From an uncultured Planctomycetia bacterium (GTDB lineage Bacteria; Omnitrophota; Gorgyraeia; Taenaricolales; CAZCCH01): a stretch of 33,743 nucleotides of DNA. The notes under the pieces were generated by a model that saw only the letters and a program-made list of their open reading frames with translations, did no database searches and was not told the DNA's origin. Shown piece after piece: positions 18,763 through 29,113 of the stretch. Where the stretch lies: assembly GCA_964497315.1 (NCBI GenBank), contig CAZCCH010000015.1, forward strand, positions 1-33,743. The letters run 5' to 3'. Both the position numbers and the translations under genes were made by a program. Each line of letters opens with the position of its first letter. Positions within the stretch are counted from its first letter, which is position 1.

Positions 18763-18900
18763 TACTTTTATTTATAATGAGTTATATAATATAGTTAGCA
18801 AAACAAAAAGTAAGATTTTTACCCTTGCTTTTTGCCAATATTATGGTATACTTATATATTGATATAGTAAAATAAAAGCTAATTTTGGTAATATAGCCGT

Positions 18901-18987
18901 CCTCGACAAAGGTAAACTCGACCAAAAAGAGGTGGGGTTCGCAAAGCTGCGGGTCTAATTTTAAATAGATAGCCGGGCTGTCGAAGG
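18901..18987 (+). ncRNA. Candidate GEMM-I-like cyclic-dinucleotide riboswitch aptamer in the giant-gene leader
   Basis: Hand alignment to the V. cholerae Vc2 aptamer recalled from memory: GACAAAGG / UCGCAAAGCUGCGGGUCUAA / AUAGAUAGCCGGGCUGUCGAAGG versus GGCAAACC / ACGCAAAGCCUCCGGCCUAA / GUAGGUAGCGGGGUUACCGAUGG. A closing helix forms between CCTCGAC (18901-07) and GTCGAAGG (18980-87). Not verified with a covariance model. Confidence 0.5.
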
Positions 18988-19011
18988 AAACTATTTCGGC
19001 AGTCTTTTTTT
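18976..19011 (+). terminator. Intrinsic terminator / expression platform overlapping the 3' arm of the aptamer
   Basis: GGCTGTCGAA (18976-85) pairs with TTCGGCAGTC (18995-19004) around a 9-nt loop, followed by seven T. It lies 23 nt upstream of the giant-ORF ATG. Confidence 0.65.
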
Positions 19012-19033: not shown

Positions 19034-22000
19034 ATGAAACTATCAAACTCTAATATCCACAAAATTATATCAATAGCACTCCTTGTGACGTTTATGATGT
19101 CACTGATAGGGCCGGAGCTTGCCTTAGCTTCTTCTGAAACCCTTAGACCCCATGTTACATCAAGAAAAAAACCTCTTCTAAAAGAGATGATTGCAAGGTT
19201 TACTGAGTTGCAACGTCCTTCAGTAGCATCTAGTGCAGAAGACTTTAGAAAAGATGAAGTGCGCATAGTTAGAGAAATGACTGAAGCTGGACAGCTTTAT
19301 TTTCGCCATGAACCAGAAAAACCAAGTGCAATATACTATATACCATTTTTGCGATATAGAGCAAGGCTTACACGTTGTAGGGGTGTAGCTGATTATACCA
19401 GTGCTGTGTTGAATGAGAAAGATAGAAGGTTTTCTACATTTAAGAGTGAGCGCGATGGTTTTGAGCGTTGGTTTAGAACTTCCCAGGAAGGTTTTCCATC
19501 GGCAGCATTGTACGACATTGATGTTCATCCTCAAGACTTAAATGATGCCATTGCAGCACTCATAGAGCAGAAGACCAAAGAAAAGGACAATACCATTACT
19601 GTCAGGGCCTTCGGTTCTGGTTTACCGGCCTTACTTTTACCTGGAGATCCAGCTACACTTCTAGCAGGAGATGTTGAAATAGAAACTATTTTAAAGTTTA
19701 TATTATCAGGTCTAAGGCATACCAGGAATAAAGCAAAATGGACTGTGGTAGTTTATGTATATGATAAAAAGACAGCTTATTTAGGGCAACTGGAAAAGGT
19801 TCTTTTGGAAAAATTAGAAAACTCACCAATGCCATTTAATATTGTATTAAATCTTAGATATGGTGATATAGCAGATAGAGAGCAATACCCATATATGTTT
19901 GAAGAACAAAGTGACATTAATGTTTGCCGTAATATCACTCAAAGTGGTGAGAGTTTTTCTAAAGGAGATAGTATTTTTCATGGGCAATTAGTTAATAGCC
20001 TGTCACCTCATGGGTTTATTATACATGGTGCGCGTAGAAGGGGAGATAGGATTATATTAGCTTCTGATAGAGATGCTCTTAAGAGGTTAAGTGGCGATTT
20101 TCTGGATAGTAATTCTTCAGAAGATGAAGCTACTAGTAGGTTTTCAGAAATAGGTGCAATAGGTCACTTGGAAGAGGAAAGAAAAACAGAAGATCTTATT
20201 GCTGCATTGACTGCCTTTGATATTCCTTTTATACCCACAGAAAGCAATTGTGAATTTACAAGAATTTCCGCAGGTCATTCAAACCTTACGTATAATATTA
20301 AGCATAATGGCAAAAATAGGCATATTCTTCAACAAATGAGCACAATTTATGATGCAAATGCCCTTAATGCTAATCTGAACTTATTAGAACAGGCTCAAGA
20401 TGCATGGCTTAAGGAAGGCGCAGAAGATGAATACTGGCAGCCCGTTCATTATGTTAATGTCAAGGGCGCTTCTGATAAGCTATATTGTGATACAGCAGGC
20501 AGAATTTGGCGTTTAATGGATTATATTCCAGGAGAGGTTTTTGGAAAATTTAGTGATGTTCCTCAGAGTGATCGTAGAGAGATTGCCCAATCTCTTGGTA
20601 GGGCAATTGTTGTTTTTCGAAGAATGCTAGAATCAGTTCCTTTAGAAAGCTGGGAAAAGGATATGTCAGGTTTTCATGATCCACAATACTTTTATGCTTA
20701 TCTTCATTCTATTTGGCTGGGTCAGGAGGTGCCATTGAATTTTACTGATGGATCATCACATATGGTAGTTAGAGATCCTAGCGTAACAAGTGAATATTCA
20801 GAAAGAATAAATCTCTTAAAGAGAAAGATTGAAGATAGGAGACATATCTTAACTAGCTTAGATGAACTTGGCCAGGTTGTTTCACATGGAGATTTAAAGA
20901 TTGATAACCTATTCTTCCGAAAACACAAAGGCCGCTGGAAGTGCATATCTATTGCTGATTTAGATACGATACAACCTAGAAACGTCCTTACTGATCTTGG
21001 TGATGCACTGCGTTCTGCCGGCAACCCAGCTGGGTCAGAACCGAGAGCAATAGATGATGTAACAATAGATGTTGATGTGGTCACAAATATAATAAATGGA
21101 TACCTAGAAGCCACAGCAGGGTTTTATGATCACACAGAGGCAGAGCGCTTGAGACCACATACTATTGAGGCATTTAAACTTCTTCTGTATGGGCAGTCTA
21201 TGTGGTATTTAGCAGATGCACTTACTAATAGCGCATACTTTAATATAGGTGCAGAGAGAGCGCTATATAAGGCAGAGGTGCAGATGAGGGCATTGGAGCA
21301 GTTGGAAGAGTTAAGTCTAATTAAAGATGGCCCATTTGCTGATTTTGTCAAACCTGATGCCAGTAGGTTTGGGGAAAGGACTGCCGAAGAACGAATTGCT
21401 GCGCTGCGGGAAGATTTGGTGTATTATGAAGCAGCCGCGACAGCGTCTTCAGCACCTGATCAGGATTTTCCAGATGATATTTGTGATGTAGGTACAGGCG
21501 AAGCCCACCTGATGAATGAAGTCCACATTGCAGCTGATTCTGATGAGCGCCCTGAAAGAATAATTAGCGCATACACCGCTGGTCCTTGCCGGGCATATGT
21601 TATTAAAGGTAGAGTAAATGATGAGACAAGATTGTTTCTACGACATAGAGCTGCGGTAGAGGGCATACTTGATGATTTAAGAGAAGATATAGCCGCTTTA
21701 GAGAGAGCTGGCATGCAAGATAGAGAGGTTGTTTTTAAGCTTGATTTAAAGACGCAAGCCGGCCTGGAGGTCGTGAGGCTTGGATGGGTTTCTCCAGAAG
21801 AACTGAGGGAAAAAATTAAGGAAATATGCGGGCCTCGAATCTATACAGAAGAAGGCATTTTCCCACATGAAATTACTGATGTAATTGCAACCCAGGAAGG
21901 AGTAGTTATTTATTGCCCATATAATTCTAATGCCTCCAAGATTATCTTATGGCCAGAAAGCAAGGAAGGTGTATTCATGGATGCTGTATTGCCCAATGCA

Positions 22001-25000
22001 GAAGTCGTAGAGGATGAGGCATTTTCTGCTCAAAGCAGGTTTGGGGAAATGGCTGTTGATGCACTCAAGGGGAACATAAAGAGAGCGGTGTCTGTATTTA
22101 GGGATACGGCTATTGTAAAAAGTCCACAGTTAATAGAGGAAGACAAAAACAGAGTTTGGGTTATTAACAATATCTTTGAAGATAGATTCCTTCTAGATAG
22201 CGTAGTTTTAAAAGATCCAGACCCTAAACATGAAGAATATTTTTATGCTTCAAGAGAAGGGCTTGATATGTATGAGGCCCATTTTGAGAGTGACTATCCT
22301 CGCGTTGAAATAGCCCAAACAGTGATAATCGATAATCCGAAGGAAAATGATCTAGTTGGTACAAAAAGGGCATCACAGTGCCTTCCACTACTATTTGCTA
22401 ATATTCCTGATAACAAGCCCAACATGATAGGTTCTTCTCATATATTCACTTCGACAGACCCGACATTTTCATCCTTGGGTGATAAACTTCTTGACGCTGG
22501 ATATGAAAACCTAATTGTTGTAATTCCTCGTCCGAAAAAGCTTGGACGAACCGTAGCTCCATTCGCATTAAGAACATCTCAGTATGAGGAGGTGATAGCT
22601 AATATGCGAGCTAAAGGAATTACAGTATACGAGGTACCTTATCAAGACGTTTCAATAAGTGCTGCCGCAACAGCAGATGGTTTTGCGATATTCATAGAAA
22701 AATTCGTTGACCCCACAACAAAAAGGACAAAAGACATTGAAGAATTTGTTCTTCTTGAACCTATAAAAACATGGCAAGAATTCTCAAGTAGGTTTGGGGA
22801 GGTTGCTATTATTGAAGGTAATGCTGCACCGGAAGTTCTTCCGGCAACAGAGAATAGGATAGAGCTTGCGTTGAATATGCCTTCTGAAAGGGCTACGCAA
22901 ACAGGAACTGCCTGTATTAGACCCACGAAGGAAAGGGGATTTGCTGATGTATGGAGCCGCAGGGATTTTATGAAAGCCGGTGCTTTTGCTACGACTGTAG
23001 CAACTGTTTTTGGCAGTTTACCGAAGACCGGAGTTGCTGCTACGCCAGATGCTATTAAAGTCAAGGCAAAGGAGCTTTGTACACAATATTTAAAAGATGT
23101 TTGCGATGAGAAGATAACACTTGGACTAGATAATAGTTTAGGAACCTGGCGTGAAGTTCTCAAGGACAGGGAAGAATACGCCGACTTACTCAAGCCCGAT
23201 AATAATTATGCATTGCTTACTGCGTTTGTTTTTGACACGTTGTTTCCTGCGCTAGAGGAAGCTGCAAGCCGAACACGTGTCAGTGCCCATAACGCATCTA
23301 TAAATATAGAATTAGCCTTAATGAATCTCTTGGATAAAAAAGATGAAAAGGTCGAGGCATTTTTACGTCATACCTTAGCCAGGACCACTGACTCCTTGGT
23401 TAGAACAAGACGAATCCAGAATAAGGTAGAACGCGATAGACGAATTGGTATTGCACTGCAAAGACTGGAGAGCGCCTCTGCTTACATAGGGCCAGAGATT
23501 TCAGATAAGCTGGTTAGTATAGTCAAATTACACGATAGTTTAACGCAGCTTGGTCTGGAGCAAAAGGAAGAGATAGAAAGAGTATCCATGGAGATCAATA
23601 GTTTGATAATAGACCTAAATAAAATTCTAATTCCGCTTGGCTTATACTGCAGGGTTTCAATGAATGTAAGTCTGGGTGATGACAAAGAGCATATCTACAT
23701 CAAGTCGTTTAAAATAGAAAAAACCCGTTTATATAAAGCAACTGACGGCAAAGTTGTTAAGGTCTATATTGTAAAAGGGATAGATAACATAGCTATAACA
23801 AATGTCTTTGGTTTTCGCAGACTGGAAACAGACTATGCTGTAGTAATTTTAGATAATATAGAATCCAAAGCGAGAGACATAGAGGAAGTCCTAAAACATG
23901 GAAAATCTGATGCCCATAAGGATATAGAGAGCAGGCTGACTGCAATTGGGAAAGCAAGATTAGCAGACCTAAGGGTTTTACTTGTTGAGCTGGCAAAAAA
24001 GGAATTTAGTGGTTTGACCAGACAGCAAATAATGAATAAGATTCAAGTTTTAATCGAGACCCACGAGATAAGACATGTATTAGATAGGGGTAACTTTACA
24101 AGGGAAGAGCGCGATAAAAAAGAAGGTTCGGCTTTTATGGCAGAATTGATTCTGGCAGAATTGATTACAGGTACAGCTACATATTATAGTGTATTAAAAT
24201 GGGCTGAACATGTATTCAGAGGAGGAGAGCATGATTATGCCGCAAGGATGGTATTTGAAGGATTGATGAAAAAAGCAAAAGAGAAGGGATATGTAAATGC
24301 ATCCGTAAACCTGAAACATGTTAGCTTTAGAGAGTTGATAAAGACAGTAGAGACATTGCGCAGGCTAAGTAAGGGTGAAATTGCAGGTCTGGCAAGAGAG
24401 TCCTATAAAGAAATATTTGGTTTTGAATTTATAGATGCCTTGCCTGTCATTCAGCCTCCTGGTCGCTTTACCGAGCCAAAAAAGACAGCAACGTGTGAAA
24501 TAGCAATTAGAGGGAGAATGCATATTATACCCTCAGACTTGCTTGCCTATGAGCTATCAAACCTTTATAACGCAGTTAGGGGTAAGATTAATTTTACATT
24601 TAAGAAGGAGCTAGGAGACGATAGAGTTCTTGAAATGACTAATCCCGGGACAATAACTAATATTCTTAGCTTTGGACTGGGGCCTGGGGATATTCTAGAA
24701 GTTAGCGTGGAAGAGGACCTACCACGAGATGTGCAGGAAGAGGCATTGAATTACATTGAGGCTTTGTTTAATAGCTACCATATACTACAAGCAACTCAAT
24801 TGGCGCAGATGCATGGTGCTGAGCAGGCACGGATGGCTTTAGGTGGAACACCCTATGTTGATCTTGCCTCAGCAGAGCAGTATGGATTGGAGATAGTGCG
24901 TTCAGATCTATCTAGCAGTCTTTGGCCTGCATTAAGAAGACTAATAAGCATGTTGAAGCGTGATGTTGAGATTTCTCGTTTTACAGAAAGGGGAGATGAA

Positions 25001-28000
25001 ATACCCACTTCACCAGTCGATCCTGCAAGGTTTAGGGAAGATAGTAGGCTCATAGATGAGCGGGCAAGGGATATGCTGAAGGTGCTGTGTGAAAGCAGGC
25101 GCAGCCAGCCAACCAACACCAAAGCACGAAGGGCATTGGTGCGTTTAGAACACCTCGTGGATTCCAGATGGTCGTATGGTGAACAGTGGAGCGAAGTTAT
25201 CGATACATTGCGCGAAGCCGGACTCATCACCTCAGATACGGCAGGGTGGCTCGGCAGTTTGGATGATGAAGTTGTGCGCAGAACCATGTTCTATGTGACT
25301 GTGCGTTATCTTGACATAATGGAGCATGAAGTTTTATTTCACGGAACCTCACTGCATAACATAGACAGTATCAAGAAACATGGTCTGCACCCTGAGCATG
25401 TACCCCCGGGCAAAGAAGAACTTCAAAGGGTATTTGGCATAGTAGGCAAGGCGCTCGGAGAAGATCGCGCAATGGAGATTACAGAAGGTCAATTAAGTTT
25501 TGAATATGATCTAAGCCTTGCTAATTTTTACTTTGCTATCCTAGGCCCTGAGATGTTGCGAAGAGCGATAGGGGATTTACAAGAAATAAAGAAGCTAGGT
25601 TTTCCTGAAATTGATGAAGCAGATAGAAAATTTATAGAATATTTTCTTGAGCACTGGAATGATGGGTATCTTTCTTCAAACCAGCCATGCCTTCTGGCCG
25701 TACCGTTTAAGACAATCGTACAGTTTATGGATTTAGAGCAAGACGCTTACCAAAGGGATCGGACTAGGTTTCTGAAAAGGCCGCACGAATTTTTTAATGA
25801 TGTTATATTGCTTTACCTGTTTCCTTGGGAAACCTGGGTGGGGGAGGGTACATTGTTACCATTCCGCCTTCCAGCGCTTGATAAAATTGAAACAGCAATG
25901 CACGAACAAATGGCCGTTACCTTCCATGACGTGCATACATATTCCAGACCTAACTATGATCTGGGTGATATTTATGTTGTTACTGGTAAAAGAGATGCCC
26001 TCAATCTAGTACCGCTAAAACAAGTAGAAATAGATGAGCTTGAGAGAACCGCTGTTGTCCTCAGAGAAGTAAATCAAGAATGTCAAGAAAAACAAGGAGA
26101 AGTTTTCAATCGTAGCTTTTCTTCCCAGGAAGCACTTGATTTTTGCGCCGAGCTTCACAGCATTGCCCGGGAAGCCATTGCCAAGTCAAATTATGAGAGA
26201 ACCGATGGGTTATCAGGTGCTCGCTTTTCTGAGCAAGTTGAGTTTGTGGAGGATAAACTGGTCAGGGAACCAATAGAGGATGAAAATCTAACCTTGGACC
26301 AAGTGGAACAAATTGAAAGAGACAGACAGCAGATTGAAGCAGAATTGACTCGGCACTACGGGGATGCCGAGGCGTTTTTTGGAGAAGGACCACGTGATGG
26401 GATAAGAATTATTGCAACCACTGATGAAGAAGGCGAATTGATAGCAACTAGCCCCATTTATTATATAGCCCAAGGGGTAGCAATAAATGAGACCAGGCAA
26501 GAGGTATTGCTGAATTATCTTAATACGACTAGAGCGGGGATAGCAGAAGAAGGTTCGCGATATACGGTTTTTCATGAGATGGGTCACTGGGCTAATGAAA
26601 GTAGAGGTATTTCTAGTATAGTGCGGGAATTGATAGGTCCACAGATGGAGGAGATAGCGGCTTCGCATATTGAGAGGCATCCGGATGAATTGGGATTTTA
26701 CCTTGACTTGTATAATTCAAAGCTTAGAGAAGGTGAGATTCCTGTGGATAGGCTGCAAGAGTTACTGAAAGGCTGTTTAGTCGTCAAAGGCCTTACGCTT
26801 TTCGAGGATTGCTTGGTTGACAGGCAGTTATTAGAGTTAGCTCGCGCAGGAGATCTCGAAGGACTTGACAGAGAATTAATTGGTACAAGGAAAATACTTT
26901 TAGGCGATAAGCTAAAACAGCCAGATCTTTGTTGTCTCGCCATACTTAGATACAGGCTGCTTGAGGAAGTATATTCTCCAGATGATAGGACCAAGGTAGA
27001 TATTTTCCCGGATGACTTCAATCCAGAAAACTTTGGAATAAACGCAGAAATGATGAAGCAGATAGATGATGATGCGCGAGCGATGGCTGTGGCAATCAGG
27101 GGTGCGGAGCGCATGATAGCTAAATACGCGCCAGGAAAAATTGCGCCTCCAGGAGATTTGAGGGATTTAAAAGGCAGGCTGAAGTCATCTGTTGGAGATT
27201 TTATGCGACCATTGAAGAAATATCTTACCATTCCTGCGCTAATTTCTTATTTCAAGCTTAATCATACCCGAGTAGATCCCACGCGTTTCACCGAGGGTAC
27301 GGGTTCACTTAGTGCGGAGGGAAATTTGCCCGGCGATCAAACACTAGGTACTAGTGATTATTCCCCTGCCCGGTTTGTGGAAGGGGATGCCATTGCGCAA
27401 TGGCCTATTTCTATTGACGAGGCATTATTAAGAAGTGGTGAGTCTGCACGAGCTATTGCTGTAGAACCTGACTATGTTCCACCTTATGGAGTTTTAGCTC
27501 CTGGAGCTATTAATATTTCTGATTATCTCGCACTTGGCATGCTTGCTGCTTCAGGGATATCAAGTGAGCCGCAAGGGCAGGATGGGAAATTGAGCCGCAG
27601 GACGTTTCTTAAAGCTGCAGCCGCAGGAGCAGGCGTGGCAATTGGCAGCGCAGTAGTTCACAAGGTTCTAAAAAGCGATGATATAACACCGCGCATTTTA
27701 GATGATGCAGCCGATGAAAGATTAAGAAATGCTGGTAAGGCGATAAGTGCTAAATTCATGCATGTCTATGAAGAATACAAGGACAAAAATCCCGCCGAAA
27801 CAAAGCTGGTACGTGCACTTTTTAGAAAAATAAATGACCACAAGACAGAAAAGGAGATCATGCACCATCCTGAGCTTAAACACAAAAAAGATAACGTAGA
27901 CGTACTAATGGGTATAGGCGAACCTGCCGATGATAATGGTGAATCCCCTATCTATCTTTCATATAGCATACTGGGCCAACCCGATGAGATATTATGGGCA

Positions 28001-29113
28001 AAAATGGTCCACGAAGGATGGCATGCATATAATGAAATCCTCAAGAAGGCCAGTGGTGCAGCGGAGGCTATACGGCATGCACAAGATGAGATGCTTGCTA
28101 ATATAACCGAATGGGTTGAAAATCCCCAAAATCGCGATTCCATTAAAAGATATTTTAGCATTTGGGTAAATGAAGAGGAAATTGCCAATAGCTTGGAAAG
28201 AGCAGTTTTTGTTAGAGAAATAGGCGGTTCAGACAATGAGGCTATCGAAAGATTTGTGCAAAAAGCTATACAGCAAAATCCCAGGGCTCAGGCAGATACG
28301 GGCTCAGGCAGCAAAGAGAGAAAAGAGGCCTATGCGAGACATCTGAGAAGGTATGTAAGAGATCGAATACTGAGATATTATCGAATTCCCTCGTTACATG
28401 GTAGATTGCGATATATACTTAGTAGCTATTATTCACATGTAAAACCTGCTGTGTACATCGGGTTATTTCTAACAGAATTTTATGAAGGACGAGCTGATCA
28501 TCGAACTAGGACAACGAGCCCAGGCAGAAAGTTCTTCATAGGGCCAGATAGAATCGAACTAAATATAAGATCTCATGGAGCTAGTGGGCAGCAAAGGCTT
28601 ATTCTTACGCCTAAAGAGAATTTTTTAGAATGGGCATCGAACTGGGCAAATTCTGAGGAATATAAAAGATTGTTTGTGAAACCAGAAGGCCTTACGAAAA
28701 TGCGCGGTTCCCGCTTTTCCGAAGCCTCCCAAGCCATATTTGGCAAAATTGAGCAACCCACAGGCATAATAATGAAAGCAGATTTTGCTACTAAAATCTT
28801 TCCAGTTTTGCCAGAGTTAGCAGTCCACTTTGGCCAAAAGGTAACAATTGCTGTAGTGGGCCCTTCACAGCTAAAGGAGAGAATAACCAAAGTAAATGCA
28901 GTCTTGCCACATGATGTATCTATTATACTATGCGATACCATTGATGAAGCAGCCAAGGAGTTGTCTGAGAGAGGTATAGGCCTTATCAGATTACTCACCA
29001 GAAAAACAATAAAAGACCTTCCTTTGGTTCGTGAAACCCTCCTTATTACAGAGAAGACCCTACAGCTAATAGATGAGTTGAGATCCCGCAAAGAAATAGC
29101 TGGTGGGGCATAA
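19034..29113 (+). CDS. Giant (3,359-aa) multi-module secreted/membrane protein of unknown function
   Basis: Uninterrupted 10,080-nt ORF. N-terminal Sec-type signal (aa 1-32, ALA|SS). Internal kinase-like, HPr-like and HExxH segments, plus two internal twin-arginine signal-like segments. See findings. Confidence 0.9.
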   Translation: MKLSNSNIHKIISIALLVTFMMSLIGPELALASSETLRPHVTSRKKPLLKEMIARFTELQRPSVASSAEDFRKDEVRIVREMTEAGQLYFRHEPEKPSAIYYIPFLRYRARLTRCRGVADYTSAVLNEKDRRFSTFKSERDGFERWFRTSQEGFPSAALYDIDVHPQDLNDAIAALIEQKTKEKDNTITVRAFGSGLPALLLPGDPATLLAGDVEIETILKFILSGLRHTRNKAKWTVVVYVYDKKTAYLGQLEKVLLEKLENSPMPFNIVLNLRYGDIADREQYPYMFEEQSDINVCRNITQSGESFSKGDSIFHGQLVNSLSPHGFIIHGARRRGDRIILASDRDALKRLSGDFLDSNSSEDEATSRFSEIGAIGHLEEERKTEDLIAALTAFDIPFIPTESNCEFTRISAGHSNLTYNIKHNGKNRHILQQMSTIYDANALNANLNLLEQAQDAWLKEGAEDEYWQPVHYVNVKGASDKLYCDTAGRIWRLMDYIPGEVFGKFSDVPQSDRREIAQSLGRAIVVFRRMLESVPLESWEKDMSGFHDPQYFYAYLHSIWLGQEVPLNFTDGSSHMVVRDPSVTSEYSERINLLKRKIEDRRHILTSLDELGQVVSHGDLKIDNLFFRKHKGRWKCISIADLDTIQPRNVLTDLGDALRSAGNPAGSEPRAIDDVTIDVDVVTNIINGYLEATAGFYDHTEAERLRPHTIEAFKLLLYGQSMWYLADALTNSAYFNIGAERALYKAEVQMRALEQLEELSLIKDGPFADFVKPDASRFGERTAEERIAALREDLVYYEAAATASSAPDQDFPDDICDVGTGEAHLMNEVHIAADSDERPERIISAYTAGPCRAYVIKGRVNDETRLFLRHRAAVEGILDDLREDIAALERAGMQDREVVFKLDLKTQAGLEVVRLGWVSPEELREKIKEICGPRIYTEEGIFPHEITDVIATQEGVVIYCPYNSNASKIILWPESKEGVFMDAVLPNAEVVEDEAFSAQSRFGEMAVDALKGNIKRAVSVFRDTAIVKSPQLIEEDKNRVWVINNIFEDRFLLDSVVLKDPDPKHEEYFYASREGLDMYEAHFESDYPRVEIAQTVIIDNPKENDLVGTKRASQCLPLLFANIPDNKPNMIGSSHIFTSTDPTFSSLGDKLLDAGYENLIVVIPRPKKLGRTVAPFALRTSQYEEVIANMRAKGITVYEVPYQDVSISAAATADGFAIFIEKFVDPTTKRTKDIEEFVLLEPIKTWQEFSSRFGEVAIIEGNAAPEVLPATENRIELALNMPSERATQTGTACIRPTKERGFADVWSRRDFMKAGAFATTVATVFGSLPKTGVAATPDAIKVKAKELCTQYLKDVCDEKITLGLDNSLGTWREVLKDREEYADLLKPDNNYALLTAFVFDTLFPALEEAASRTRVSAHNASINIELALMNLLDKKDEKVEAFLRHTLARTTDSLVRTRRIQNKVERDRRIGIALQRLESASAYIGPEISDKLVSIVKLHDSLTQLGLEQKEEIERVSMEINSLIIDLNKILIPLGLYCRVSMNVSLGDDKEHIYIKSFKIEKTRLYKATDGKVVKVYIVKGIDNIAITNVFGFRRLETDYAVVILDNIESKARDIEEVLKHGKSDAHKDIESRLTAIGKARLADLRVLLVELAKKEFSGLTRQQIMNKIQVLIETHEIRHVLDRGNFTREERDKKEGSAFMAELILAELITGTATYYSVLKWAEHVFRGGEHDYAARMVFEGLMKKAKEKGYVNASVNLKHVSFRELIKTVETLRRLSKGEIAGLARESYKEIFGFEFIDALPVIQPPGRFTEPKKTATCEIAIRGRMHIIPSDLLAYELSNLYNAVRGKINFTFKKELGDDRVLEMTNPGTITNILSFGLGPGDILEVSVEEDLPRDVQEEALNYIEALFNSYHILQATQLAQMHGAEQARMALGGTPYVDLASAEQYGLEIVRSDLSSSLWPALRRLISMLKRDVEISRFTERGDEIPTSPVDPARFREDSRLIDERARDMLKVLCESRRSQPTNTKARRALVRLEHLVDSRWSYGEQWSEVIDTLREAGLITSDTAGWLGSLDDEVVRRTMFYVTVRYLDIMEHEVLFHGTSLHNIDSIKKHGLHPEHVPPGKEELQRVFGIVGKALGEDRAMEITEGQLSFEYDLSLANFYFAILGPEMLRRAIGDLQEIKKLGFPEIDEADRKFIEYFLEHWNDGYLSSNQPCLLAVPFKTIVQFMDLEQDAYQRDRTRFLKRPHEFFNDVILLYLFPWETWVGEGTLLPFRLPALDKIETAMHEQMAVTFHDVHTYSRPNYDLGDIYVVTGKRDALNLVPLKQVEIDELERTAVVLREVNQECQEKQGEVFNRSFSSQEALDFCAELHSIAREAIAKSNYERTDGLSGARFSEQVEFVEDKLVREPIEDENLTLDQVEQIERDRQQIEAELTRHYGDAEAFFGEGPRDGIRIIATTDEEGELIATSPIYYIAQGVAINETRQEVLLNYLNTTRAGIAEEGSRYTVFHEMGHWANESRGISSIVRELIGPQMEEIAASHIERHPDELGFYLDLYNSKLREGEIPVDRLQELLKGCLVVKGLTLFEDCLVDRQLLELARAGDLEGLDRELIGTRKILLGDKLKQPDLCCLAILRYRLLEEVYSPDDRTKVDIFPDDFNPENFGINAEMMKQIDDDARAMAVAIRGAERMIAKYAPGKIAPPGDLRDLKGRLKSSVGDFMRPLKKYLTIPALISYFKLNHTRVDPTRFTEGTGSLSAEGNLPGDQTLGTSDYSPARFVEGDAIAQWPISIDEALLRSGESARAIAVEPDYVPPYGVLAPGAINISDYLALGMLAASGISSEPQGQDGKLSRRTFLKAAAAGAGVAIGSAVVHKVLKSDDITPRILDDAADERLRNAGKAISAKFMHVYEEYKDKNPAETKLVRALFRKINDHKTEKEIMHHPELKHKKDNVDVLMGIGEPADDNGESPIYLSYSILGQPDEILWAKMVHEGWHAYNEILKKASGAAEAIRHAQDEMLANITEWVENPQNRDSIKRYFSIWVNEEEIANSLERAVFVREIGGSDNEAIERFVQKAIQQNPRAQADTGSGSKERKEAYARHLRRYVRDRILRYYRIPSLHGRLRYILSSYYSHVKPAVYIGLFLTEFYEGRADHRTRTTSPGRKFFIGPDRIELNIRSHGASGQQRLILTPKENFLEWASNWANSEEYKRLFVKPEGLTKMRGSRFSEASQAIFGKIEQPTGIIMKADFATKIFPVLPELAVHFGQKVTIAVVGPSQLKERITKVNAVLPHDVSIILCDTIDEAAKELSERGIGLIRLLTRKTIKDLPLVRETLLITEKTLQLIDELRSRKEIAGGA

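Follow-up and report, generated by a model that had tools for sequence, protein, structure and literature searches.

Internal signals of the twin-arginine translocation (Tat) pathway have been established in an actinobacterial Rieske protein and in three further membrane-protein families (PMC5449189; PMC13186574), and low hydrophobicity of the hydrophobic region (h-region) together with positive charge after it drives the release of the Tat-dependent helix from the general secretory (Sec) pathway (Tooke et al. 2017, PMC5449189). Internal Tat signals are known from a few compact membrane-protein families, and have been unreported deep in large soluble multi-domain proteins or twice in one chain. 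Here we describe a giant open reading frame (ORF) from an uncultured bacterium assigned to Omnitrophota, found in a stretch of 33,743 nucleotides (nt) of contig CAZCCH010000015.1 (NCBI GenBank assembly GCA_964497315.1; hereafter the window), whose predicted product of 3,359 amino acids (aa) carries two internal Tat-type signals, at aa 1308 and aa 2854. For the long proteins of Omnitrophota, post-translational cleavage has been suggested (West-Roberts et al. 2023 preprint; 10.64898/2026.06.07.730766). The 2026 preprint (10.64898/2026.06.07.730766) also treats, by design, signal peptides called on any chunk but the first as artefacts of chunking and downgrades them, so that features like the internal signals of the giant protein would be discarded. 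Tat is unmentioned in both of these long-protein preprints (2023, 2026) and in a general Omnitrophota paper (PMC10066038), and our literature search yielded no report of Tat in Omnitrophota, nor any of polyprotein-like bacterial proteins with Tat-type signals.

The giant protein carries two cassettes of one layout with different downstream domains. Signal 1 could best be described as the N-terminal part of a mobile cassette, made of an unstructured linker, a signal with twin arginines (RR) and a folded HExxH domain resembling dipeptidyl peptidase III (DPP III). The parts of the two cassettes are as follows:

19034 to 29113, + strand: giant ORF (10,080 nt, open throughout), encoding a multi-domain 'beads-on-a-string' protein
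22802 to 22954, + strand: linker with M1282 (nt 22877), unconserved against the closest relative (P0025), AlphaFold confidence (pLDDT) below 50 where modelled (from aa 1285), no Shine-Dalgarno (SD) site before 22877
22955 to 23041, + strand: internal Tat-type signal 1, SRRDFMK, h-region and PKTGVAA / TPD, from the motif, TIGR01409 and the homologue alignment
23042 to 24460, + strand: conserved module with a predicted DPP-III-like zincin fold, aa 1337-1809, HEIRH at nt 24062-24076
27593 to 27673, + strand: internal Tat-type signal 2, SRRTFLK-AAAAGAGVAIGSAVV-HKVLK, aa 2854-2880 (LSRRTFLKAAAAGAGVAIGSAVVHKVLK), from PF10518, TIGR01409 and conservation in P0027
27674 to 28708, + strand: domain behind signal 2, aa 2881-3225, HEGWH at nt 28010-28024, from alignment with the L010 orthologue

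A first-pass annotation of this DNA, made from the letters alone, had drawn attention to signal 1, and both the positions and the translation that it gave are correct: M1282 is encoded by ATG 22877, and AGC CGC AGG GAT TTT ATG AAA (22955-22975) encodes S1308-R-R-D-F-M-K, in a frame that stays open across the signal with no stop codon nearby, as it had stated. The tripartite organization that it had described is likewise real, since the near-consensus motif is followed by a weakly hydrophobic Ala/Thr/Gly stretch (AGAFATTVATVFGSLP; 16 uncharged residues, mean Kyte-Doolittle value 1.23) and then by KTGVAA / TPD. The c-region (the C-terminal part of the signal), PK...VAA / TP, contains a small-x-small site, and the modelled domain begins right after it. 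Scored on an isolated sub-sequence, as were all signals against the hidden Markov models (HMMs), signal 1 reaches 19.3 bits with TIGR01409, above the cut-off of 16.7. These observations support a genuine tripartite Tat-type signal, neither a chance match nor an ordinary hydrophobic helix.

Signal 2 had not been flagged in the first-pass annotation and is the stronger of the two, passing both models (TIGR01409, 23.8 bits; PF10518, 24.7 bits); in its LSRRTFLK form it spans aa 2853-2880 (nt 27590-27673). Its h-region again comprises 16 uncharged residues (Kyte-Doolittle value 1.53), and its c-region offers only GSA / VV, within the h-region, followed by HKVLK. When the giant protein was shuffled 5000 times, 0.0002 occurrences of [ST]RRxF[LM]K were expected, against the two observed. 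Signal 2 is kept in P0027 as NRRSFLKRSVVAGAGAAIAGSAIYKALK / NRRSFLKRSVVAGAGAAIAGSAIYKALKSDD, despite different upstream domains, and also in the L010 orthologue. The second cassette shares 54% identity with the L010 orthologue (P0027) over 43% of the query, and 60% in alignment A3; an AlphaFold model of this cassette, built from two sequences, reached a pLDDT of 35. In the second-cassette orthologue an in-frame TAG stands right after HEGWHAYNKTLK (L010 2293-2295, at the same position in L011, from two independent metagenome samples), and homologous sequence runs on in the same frame beyond it without a further break; a nonsense allele, a stop that is read through or a pseudogene might account for this. 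The L010 locus and the window further have in common the neighbouring gene families Fic, VIT1, AAL_decarboxy, a 132-aa ORF and DUF134.

The domain behind signal 1 could be followed into other proteins. When aa 1001-2200 were searched exhaustively with HMMER against a set of 1.84 billion representative proteins, 20 matches were returned, all of which align to about 470 residues beginning right after signal 1, and the family statistics given here rest on these 20 matches together with P0025 and P0027. Nine modules (from the giant, P0004, P0006, P0007, P0011, P0012 and P0017, with two copies from P0005) were placed in alignment A1, where they show 21-30% identity to the giant and ten invariant columns only. 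The twin arginines (R25 and R26) are among these ten, together with the second His of HExxH and a downstream E..A........E pattern, whereas the first His of HExxH has been lost in one paralogous copy. The RR pair, whose absence from homologues the first-pass annotation would have counted against a Tat signal, is therefore kept in all nine. Eleven signals consisting of RR plus an uncharged stretch were recognized, lying 268-371 residues before the HExxH of the module or at the module N-terminus. Word-indexed homologue searches returned nothing for aa 1200-1700, probably because the cluster representative P0001 spans only aa 1702-3359, and nothing for A1; a profile search of genome and metagenome contigs with alignment A2 gave pattern matches and no confirmed relatives.

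The AlphaFold2 model built on A1 (pLDDT 80, predicted template modelling score 0.79) starts to be confident at about aa 1337, directly after VAA / TPD, and ends at about aa 1806. Its residues 1-51 (aa 1285-1335) have a pLDDT below 50 and contain one isolated low-confidence helix, aa 1309-1328, over the RR and the h-region. As modelled, the module has the fold of DPP III. It differs from DPP III (M49) and other gluzincins in sequence, at 7-14% identity and with HE[IA]RH instead of HExxGH, so that the DPP III signature HExxGH ... EExR[AK]E is absent and HE[IA]RH and E[AG][RS]AF..E are found; the module matched no Pfam peptidase family, and its model had no Foldseek match in the PDB. The giant contains three HExxH motifs, against 0.16 expected: HEIRH at aa 1677 (nt 24062), HEMGH at aa 2514 (nt 26573) and HEGWH at aa 2993 (nt 28010). 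This trio suggests up to three metallopeptidase-like domains per chain, the first of which is the one modelled as DPP-III-like.

The position of the signal within the homologues bears directly on its origin. The RR lies at residue 413 of 1082 in P0025, 890 of 1456 in P0006, 1003 of 2487 in P0007, 859 of 1931 in P0011, 1401 of 1882 in P0012, 1391 of 1860 in P0017, 203 of 433 in P0018, and 588 and 1191 of 2258 in P0005. The gene boundary at this place that the first-pass annotation had considered in homologues was not found, for the RR signal is internal wherever the 5' end is resolved, and none of these homologues has a conserved start codon or SD site at the signal. P0004 (3,653 aa) had seemed to carry the module as its N-terminus, with the RR at residue 86, a reading that was rejected as the ORF is open to the contig start; it has a second internal signal, LSRRAFLK...AQA / VD, at residue 2950. 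P0025, the closest relative, is encoded in full on a second contig of the metagenome to which the window belongs (JGI 3300009311). In it, what is conserved with the giant is RRDF[ML]K, the hydrophobicity of the h-region, LPK, the small-x-small site (VAA / ASA) and the start of the mature domain (LCxQYLKDV..EKI.LGLDNSL.TWR). The homologue pattern implies that the module as such includes a hydrophobic signal at its N-terminus, and in the closer relatives this signal is, to judge from the alignments, of the RR type and kept by selection. The distant relative P0008 is a complete standalone gene in which the module follows an N-terminal signal without RR. Since each signal is conserved with its following domain in related large proteins, both could be regarded as working internal signals rather than accidents.

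The upstream contexts of the cassettes differ, with tetratricopeptide repeats (TPR) in P0025, a P-loop domain (GIGGYSLAGKS) in P0027 and a kinase in the giant. A fusion of formerly separate genes, one of the explanations offered in the first-pass annotation, would therefore hold in an evolutionary sense only, as a shuffling of linker-signal-domain cassettes between genes, after which the RR is kept by selection. BLASTP self-comparison of the giant showed no internal repeats, so the two cassettes are not duplicates of each other. Several side observations concern the family. P0006, P0007 and P0018 share a C-terminal element, GGIDFDPSKL.LQIKRDGRGVPLP...G[LF].PVI..I.PI..LP.IL (GGIDL in P0017), which belongs to no Pfam family and might serve to sort or anchor proteins of this class. 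P0012 is immediately preceded by a very long ORF outside the called-gene list (L013 61-9726; at least 3,221 aa; TTG start at nt 61, close to the edge of the locus). The paralogue P0025 has two tRNAs and a class A RNase P RNA (148 bits) just upstream of it (L006 9411-9830); a riboswitch was looked for there and none was found.

The domains on the two sides of the RR signals appear to belong to different compartments. Two features of the giant upstream of signal 1 are relevant here:

19034 to 19132, + strand: N-terminal Sec-type signal MKLSNSNIHK-IISIALLVTFMMSLIG-PELALA / SS, the most hydrophobic segment of the protein
20255 to 21319, + strand: kinase domain of the APH / N-acetylhexosamine-1-kinase (NahK) type, aa 408-762, Pfam PF01636 (E 2.2e-10)

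The N-terminal signal has Kyte-Doolittle values of 2.0-2.2 and no RR, and the first 100 residues of the giant match neither TIGR01409 nor PF10518; similar N-termini are found in P0025 and P0027. The kinase domain aligns over aa 412-762 with the NahK structures 4ocu/4wh1 in the PDB (E 4.5e-9), and its HGDLKIDN and DLD are presumably the catalytic motifs. As judged by such matches, the RR signals are preceded by domains of a cytoplasmic kind, which need ATP or sugar phosphates, as the NahK-like kinase of the giant would. P0017 has two HATPase_c domains upstream of its RR, and P0012, which has no N-terminal signal, consists of HTH_8, HATPase_c and SAM-methyltransferase domains followed by the RR, the h-region and the C-terminal module; in P0004, PGI and FBPase domains both come after the first RR. 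P0011 shows a Rieske-like arrangement, with two hydrophobic helices (754, 822), then RRR and an h-region at 859, then the module. The module itself is predicted to be extracytoplasmic by the independent architectures of P0008, P0012 and P0011.

The hydrophobicity of the segments themselves could distinguish the two kinds of signal. By a simple Hessa sum, which is crude and position-independent, the giant's signal 1 scores +7.0, signal 2 +4.7 and the N-terminal signal +2.3. Across the family, Hessa-2005 sums of the RR-linked h-regions are mostly +4.5 to +8.2 kcal/mol, and those of the N-terminal or Sec-type segments of the same proteins are +0.2 to +3.4 kcal/mol, a range that two RR-linked exceptions (P0012, +3.2; P0017, +2.6) overlap. 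A basic residue follows the h-region in 8 of 13 RR signals, by reading of the listed sequences. AxA-like sites stand after the Sec-type N-terminal signals (ALA / SS, VYA / YR and ALA / YR). The first-pass annotation had further noted that the positive charges before signal 1, if the segment is read as a plain membrane-spanning helix, conflict with the topology set by the N-terminal Sec-type signal, and this conflict is real: in a crude hydrophobicity scan, on which the topology rests, aa 30-1308 contain no return helix. Between the two RR signals of the giant there is likewise no clear return helix, only a marginal stretch at aa 2820-2843.

Both cassettes are bracketed by a short motif, RFxE, which occurs 12 times in the giant against 0.9 expected (11 times against 0.17 as [SAT]RFxE), and which is found nowhere else in the window, in about 9,700 residues of other ORFs. 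Its Arg lies at aa 55, 369, 778, 1002, 1253, 1811, 1982, 1999, 2397, 2751, 2780 and 3227 of the giant. The copies that stand at or near cassette boundaries are:

22787 to 22801, + strand: SRFGE (Arg aa 1253), 56 aa upstream of the signal 1 RR
24461 to 24475, + strand: GRFTE, closing the first cassette, where the homology with P0025 and P0002 ends exactly
27281 to 27295, + strand: TRFTE, just before ARFVE
27368 to 27382, + strand: ARFVE, opening the second cassette, where the local alignment with the L010 orthologue starts
28709 to 28723, + strand: SRFSE, closing the second cassette, where the alignment with the L010 orthologue ends and the downstream sequence differs

At the GRFTE position both P0025 and P0002 keep TRFAE, and the AlphaFold fold also ends at this aa 1811 site. 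The copies at 369 and 778 bracket the kinase domain (412-762), and those at 2751 and 2780 precede signal 2. The motif is lineage-specific, being confined to the giant and its close relatives: P0025 has four copies and the L010 orthologue four (one as HFAE), and a copy lies 10-25 residues behind the N-terminal signal in all three relatives. A DNA-level origin of the motif was considered and ruled out, because the Arg codons vary (AGG, CGC, CGT, CGG), which implies constraint at the protein level. From its placement at independently defined boundaries, RFxE may be a candidate processing (cut or recognition) site, a docking site or no more than a linker signature. Post-translational cleavage, another explanation raised in the first-pass annotation, may occur, with RFxE as the candidate site. 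In P0004, KPWLV occurs in three copies (aa 4, 58, 2886), each 28-82 residues upstream of one of the two RR signals, a layout that parallels the RFxE upstream of each RR signal in the giant.

Given the above, the explanation that we favor, though with no more than middling confidence, is that a functional internal Tat-type signal exports the downstream folded domain with its N-terminal side in and its C-terminal side out, and then anchors it or is cut at VAA / TPD, probably with cutting between the cassettes. The upstream ATP-using domains would be made in the cytoplasm and stay there, while the downstream domain would fold. With its RR, an h-region of low hydrophobicity and a basic residue behind that, the segment would be ignored by Sec and taken over by the Tat translocase, and the h-region would then span the membrane N-in/C-out and leave the domain outside the cytoplasmic membrane. 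The exported domain would either stay anchored by the h-region or be released by signal peptidase at VAA / TPD, and the chain would be cut between cassettes, with the [SAT]RFxE copies at the located boundaries as the places where it might be recognized or cut. That export depends on Tat, how the segment lies in the membrane, and cleavage by signal peptidase or at RFxE are all inferred from sequence features.

Several observations weigh against this explanation. Signal 1 scores 15.2 bits with the Pfam TAT_signal model PF10518, below the cut-off of 22.7. In the giant, P0025, P0027, P0006 and P0007 a classical Sec-type signal at the start is the only hydrophobic segment before the RR, so that an uncut chain cannot satisfy all of its signals and processing is probably needed in this subgroup. 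Cutting at the first RFxE (aa 54) would separate the Sec signal from the rest of the chain, so that simple processing of all the sites in the cytoplasm makes little sense, and RFxE is absent from more distant homologues that still keep the RR. In the still more distant P0014, P0015 and P0019 a hydrophobic segment without RR occupies the signal position, and Tat is thus not obligatory for the module. No tatA, tatC or canonical N-terminal Tat substrate was seen in the window or the related loci (about 150 kb), which leaves the Tat machinery unproven for the lineage. If the chain were not cut at aa 1810, signal 1 would have to carry a Tat cargo of about 1,500 residues, and none as large is known to us.

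Part of this evidence would be expected if the two segments were ordinary helices inserted by Sec/YidC as stop-transfer or signal-anchor sequences, with the arginines serving only the positive-inside rule and the Tat resemblance inherited and irrelevant in a two- or three-span protein. This is the more serious of the rivals and still an unlikely one. Omnitrophota-type long proteins have been described as rich in transmembrane (TM) helices, the segment without RR in the distant relatives is more hydrophobic and lies at the same place, and the order Sec signal, outside, first helix, inside, second helix, outside is a self-consistent topology; in addition, no Tat genes were seen in the window or the related loci. 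Nevertheless, the positive-inside rule needs no invariant Arg-Arg with x-F/L-L/M, the h-regions are poor Sec TM segments, and an apparently intact ATP-dependent kinase would lie outside the cell. The module would, moreover, be placed on opposite membrane sides in the giant and in P0008, P0011 and P0012, and the small-x-small site with the immediate domain start would be left unexplained. If the signals were instead non-functional relics of recent fusions of separate Tat-substrate genes, as the shuffled upstream contexts and the standalone P0008 gene might suggest, they should decay; an RR that is invariant at 21-30% identity, a tripartite signal kept while its exact sequence drifts and an internal position in every homologue with a resolved 5' end make this a very improbable reading. 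A sequencing or assembly artefact, such as a missed stop or a frameshift joining separate genes, has a precedent in the TAG of the L010/L011 orthologue, in that interruptions do occur in the family, but it is practically negligible: the identical 3,359-aa product is encoded on five contigs, with cluster sources from NCBI, JGI/IMG and ENA, and is hence no assembly accident, P0025 aligns in a single frame through linker, signal and module, and an open frame of 10 kb at 40% GC is beyond chance.

Shorter Tat precursors might also arise from the giant mRNA by internal initiation at or near M1282 or at TTG 27590, a possibility raised for M1282 in the first-pass annotation, which had itself seen no good SD before 22877. 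That ATG is in frame, 27 codons 5' of the signal 1 RR, and P0004, P0005 and P0007 have a Met 1-2 residues before the RR; TTG 27590, directly 5' of the signal 2 S-R-R, has an SD-like AGGA at the right spacing (-7.7 kcal/mol). The anti-SD duplex at ATG 22877 is, however, at background (-3.1 kcal/mol, against a mean of -3.07 for 150 in-frame internal start-like codons), which bears out the missing SD, and annotated starts in the window reach -12.5 kcal/mol. Together with the absence of a promoter-like site in 22500-23100 and of a conserved start in the homologues, this leaves a start at M1282 unsupported. In P0025 the nearest in-frame ATG upstream of the RR, within the linker, has a duplex energy of +0.2 kcal/mol, a start-like codon is missing just before the RR of P0006, and the SD-like strings in L003 and L005 lie at the wrong distance. 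TTG 27590 becomes TTA without SD in the L010 orthologue, and by chance about 15% of all the internal start-like codons are as strong as -6 kcal/mol or stronger. Internal initiation is therefore a distinctly improbable source of the signals. Somewhat less improbable, and still a long shot, is a previously unrecognized kind of bacterial polyprotein, a Sec-targeted product whose RFxE-delimited units are routed separately. Under the polyprotein reading, the ATP-dependent enzymes may stay in a cytoplasm, and the units with Tat signals may be exported and cut off by signal peptidase. In its most radical form the whole protein may be an effector delivered into prey, where the RR signals would hijack the prey Tat and bring the peptidase modules to the prey periplasm.

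The remaining features concern the 5' leader and other parts of the giant gene:

18901 to 18985, + strand: cyclic di-GMP (c-di-GMP) type I riboswitch aptamer in the 5' leader of the giant ORF, Rfam RF01051

The aptamer covers the full model (1-87), scores 43.5 bits against a gathering score of 35, and ends 48 nt before the ATG of the giant ORF. A promoter-like site (18832-18860) lies 5' of it, and a terminator-like stem with a T-run (18975-19005) overlaps its 3' end. A PilZ gene (L013 15721-16047) adjoins the homologue P0012, and together with the riboswitch it points to c-di-GMP control, under which the giant gene probably stands. Such control is common for surface and attachment factors. The stretch around FHGTSLHNIDSIKKHGL (aa 2088-2121, about nt 25295-25396) weakly resembles RNA 2'-phosphotransferase (Tpt1/KptA) and PARP catalytic domains (E 0.007-0.04, far below cut-offs) and may be an ADP-ribosyltransferase-like domain. 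The GC content is about 0.40-0.45 in most of the giant ORF (from nt 21001), against 0.35-0.39 in the surrounding genes and in the first 2 kb of the ORF. PADLOC returned no match.

If the favored explanation is true, Tat would act within large proteins as a modular, transferable element that instructs the cell to export a given domain, and it would provide a handle on the membrane distribution of Omnitrophota-type long proteins. The internal signal-peptide calls that current giant-protein pipelines discard may hold key topology information, and RFxE would be a testable candidate for the long-suspected processing sites. Beyond that, the riboswitch would tie the expression of the giant protein to second-messenger signaling.

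Compared with known systems, the giant has its likeness in working, rather than in descent, among flavivirus and pestivirus polyproteins, in which internal signal sequences set the membrane side of successive domains and host signal peptidase cuts; these are eukaryotic, Sec61-dependent and co-translational, and no common descent is implied. With the long or giant proteins of Omnitrophota (West-Roberts et al. 2023 preprint; 10.64898/2026.06.07.730766) it shares a multi-domain, mostly unannotated composition and an N-terminal signal, and the contig of the homologue P0006 was labelled Omnitrophota by its depositor, although at 3.4 thousand aa the giant is small for that class. Canonical Tat signals (TIGR01409 / PF10518) are N-terminal, whereas those of the giant stand at residues 1308 and 2854, with 1,307 and 2,853 residues before them and no supported start codon near; both kinds have S-R-R-x-F-L-K and a 16-residue uncharged h-region of low hydrophobicity, to which signal 1 adds a basic c-region residue and a candidate AxA-type site. 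The dual Sec/Tat proteins (Rieske, Sco3746) differ from the giant in several respects. They have a compact helix bundle before the RR, where the giant family has 400-1,400 residues of soluble multi-domain sequence, and they follow a rule of an even number of TM segments before the RR (N-in), with which P0011 (two) and P0012 (none) agree and the giant, with one Sec-type segment, does not. The giant, for its part, has two signals per chain; it and its closest relatives start with a cleavable Sec-type signal without return helices, and an apparent small-x-small cleavage site is usual and a peptidase-like fold takes the place of a redox cofactor domain. Nevertheless, both signals of the giant directly precede a conserved domain, as seen from the AlphaFold fold for signal 1 and from end-to-end homology with L010 for signal 2, and the giant shares with the dual Sec/Tat proteins an internal RR right before a weakly hydrophobic segment, positive charges after it, and the export, here predicted, of a folded and probably metal-binding C-terminal domain.

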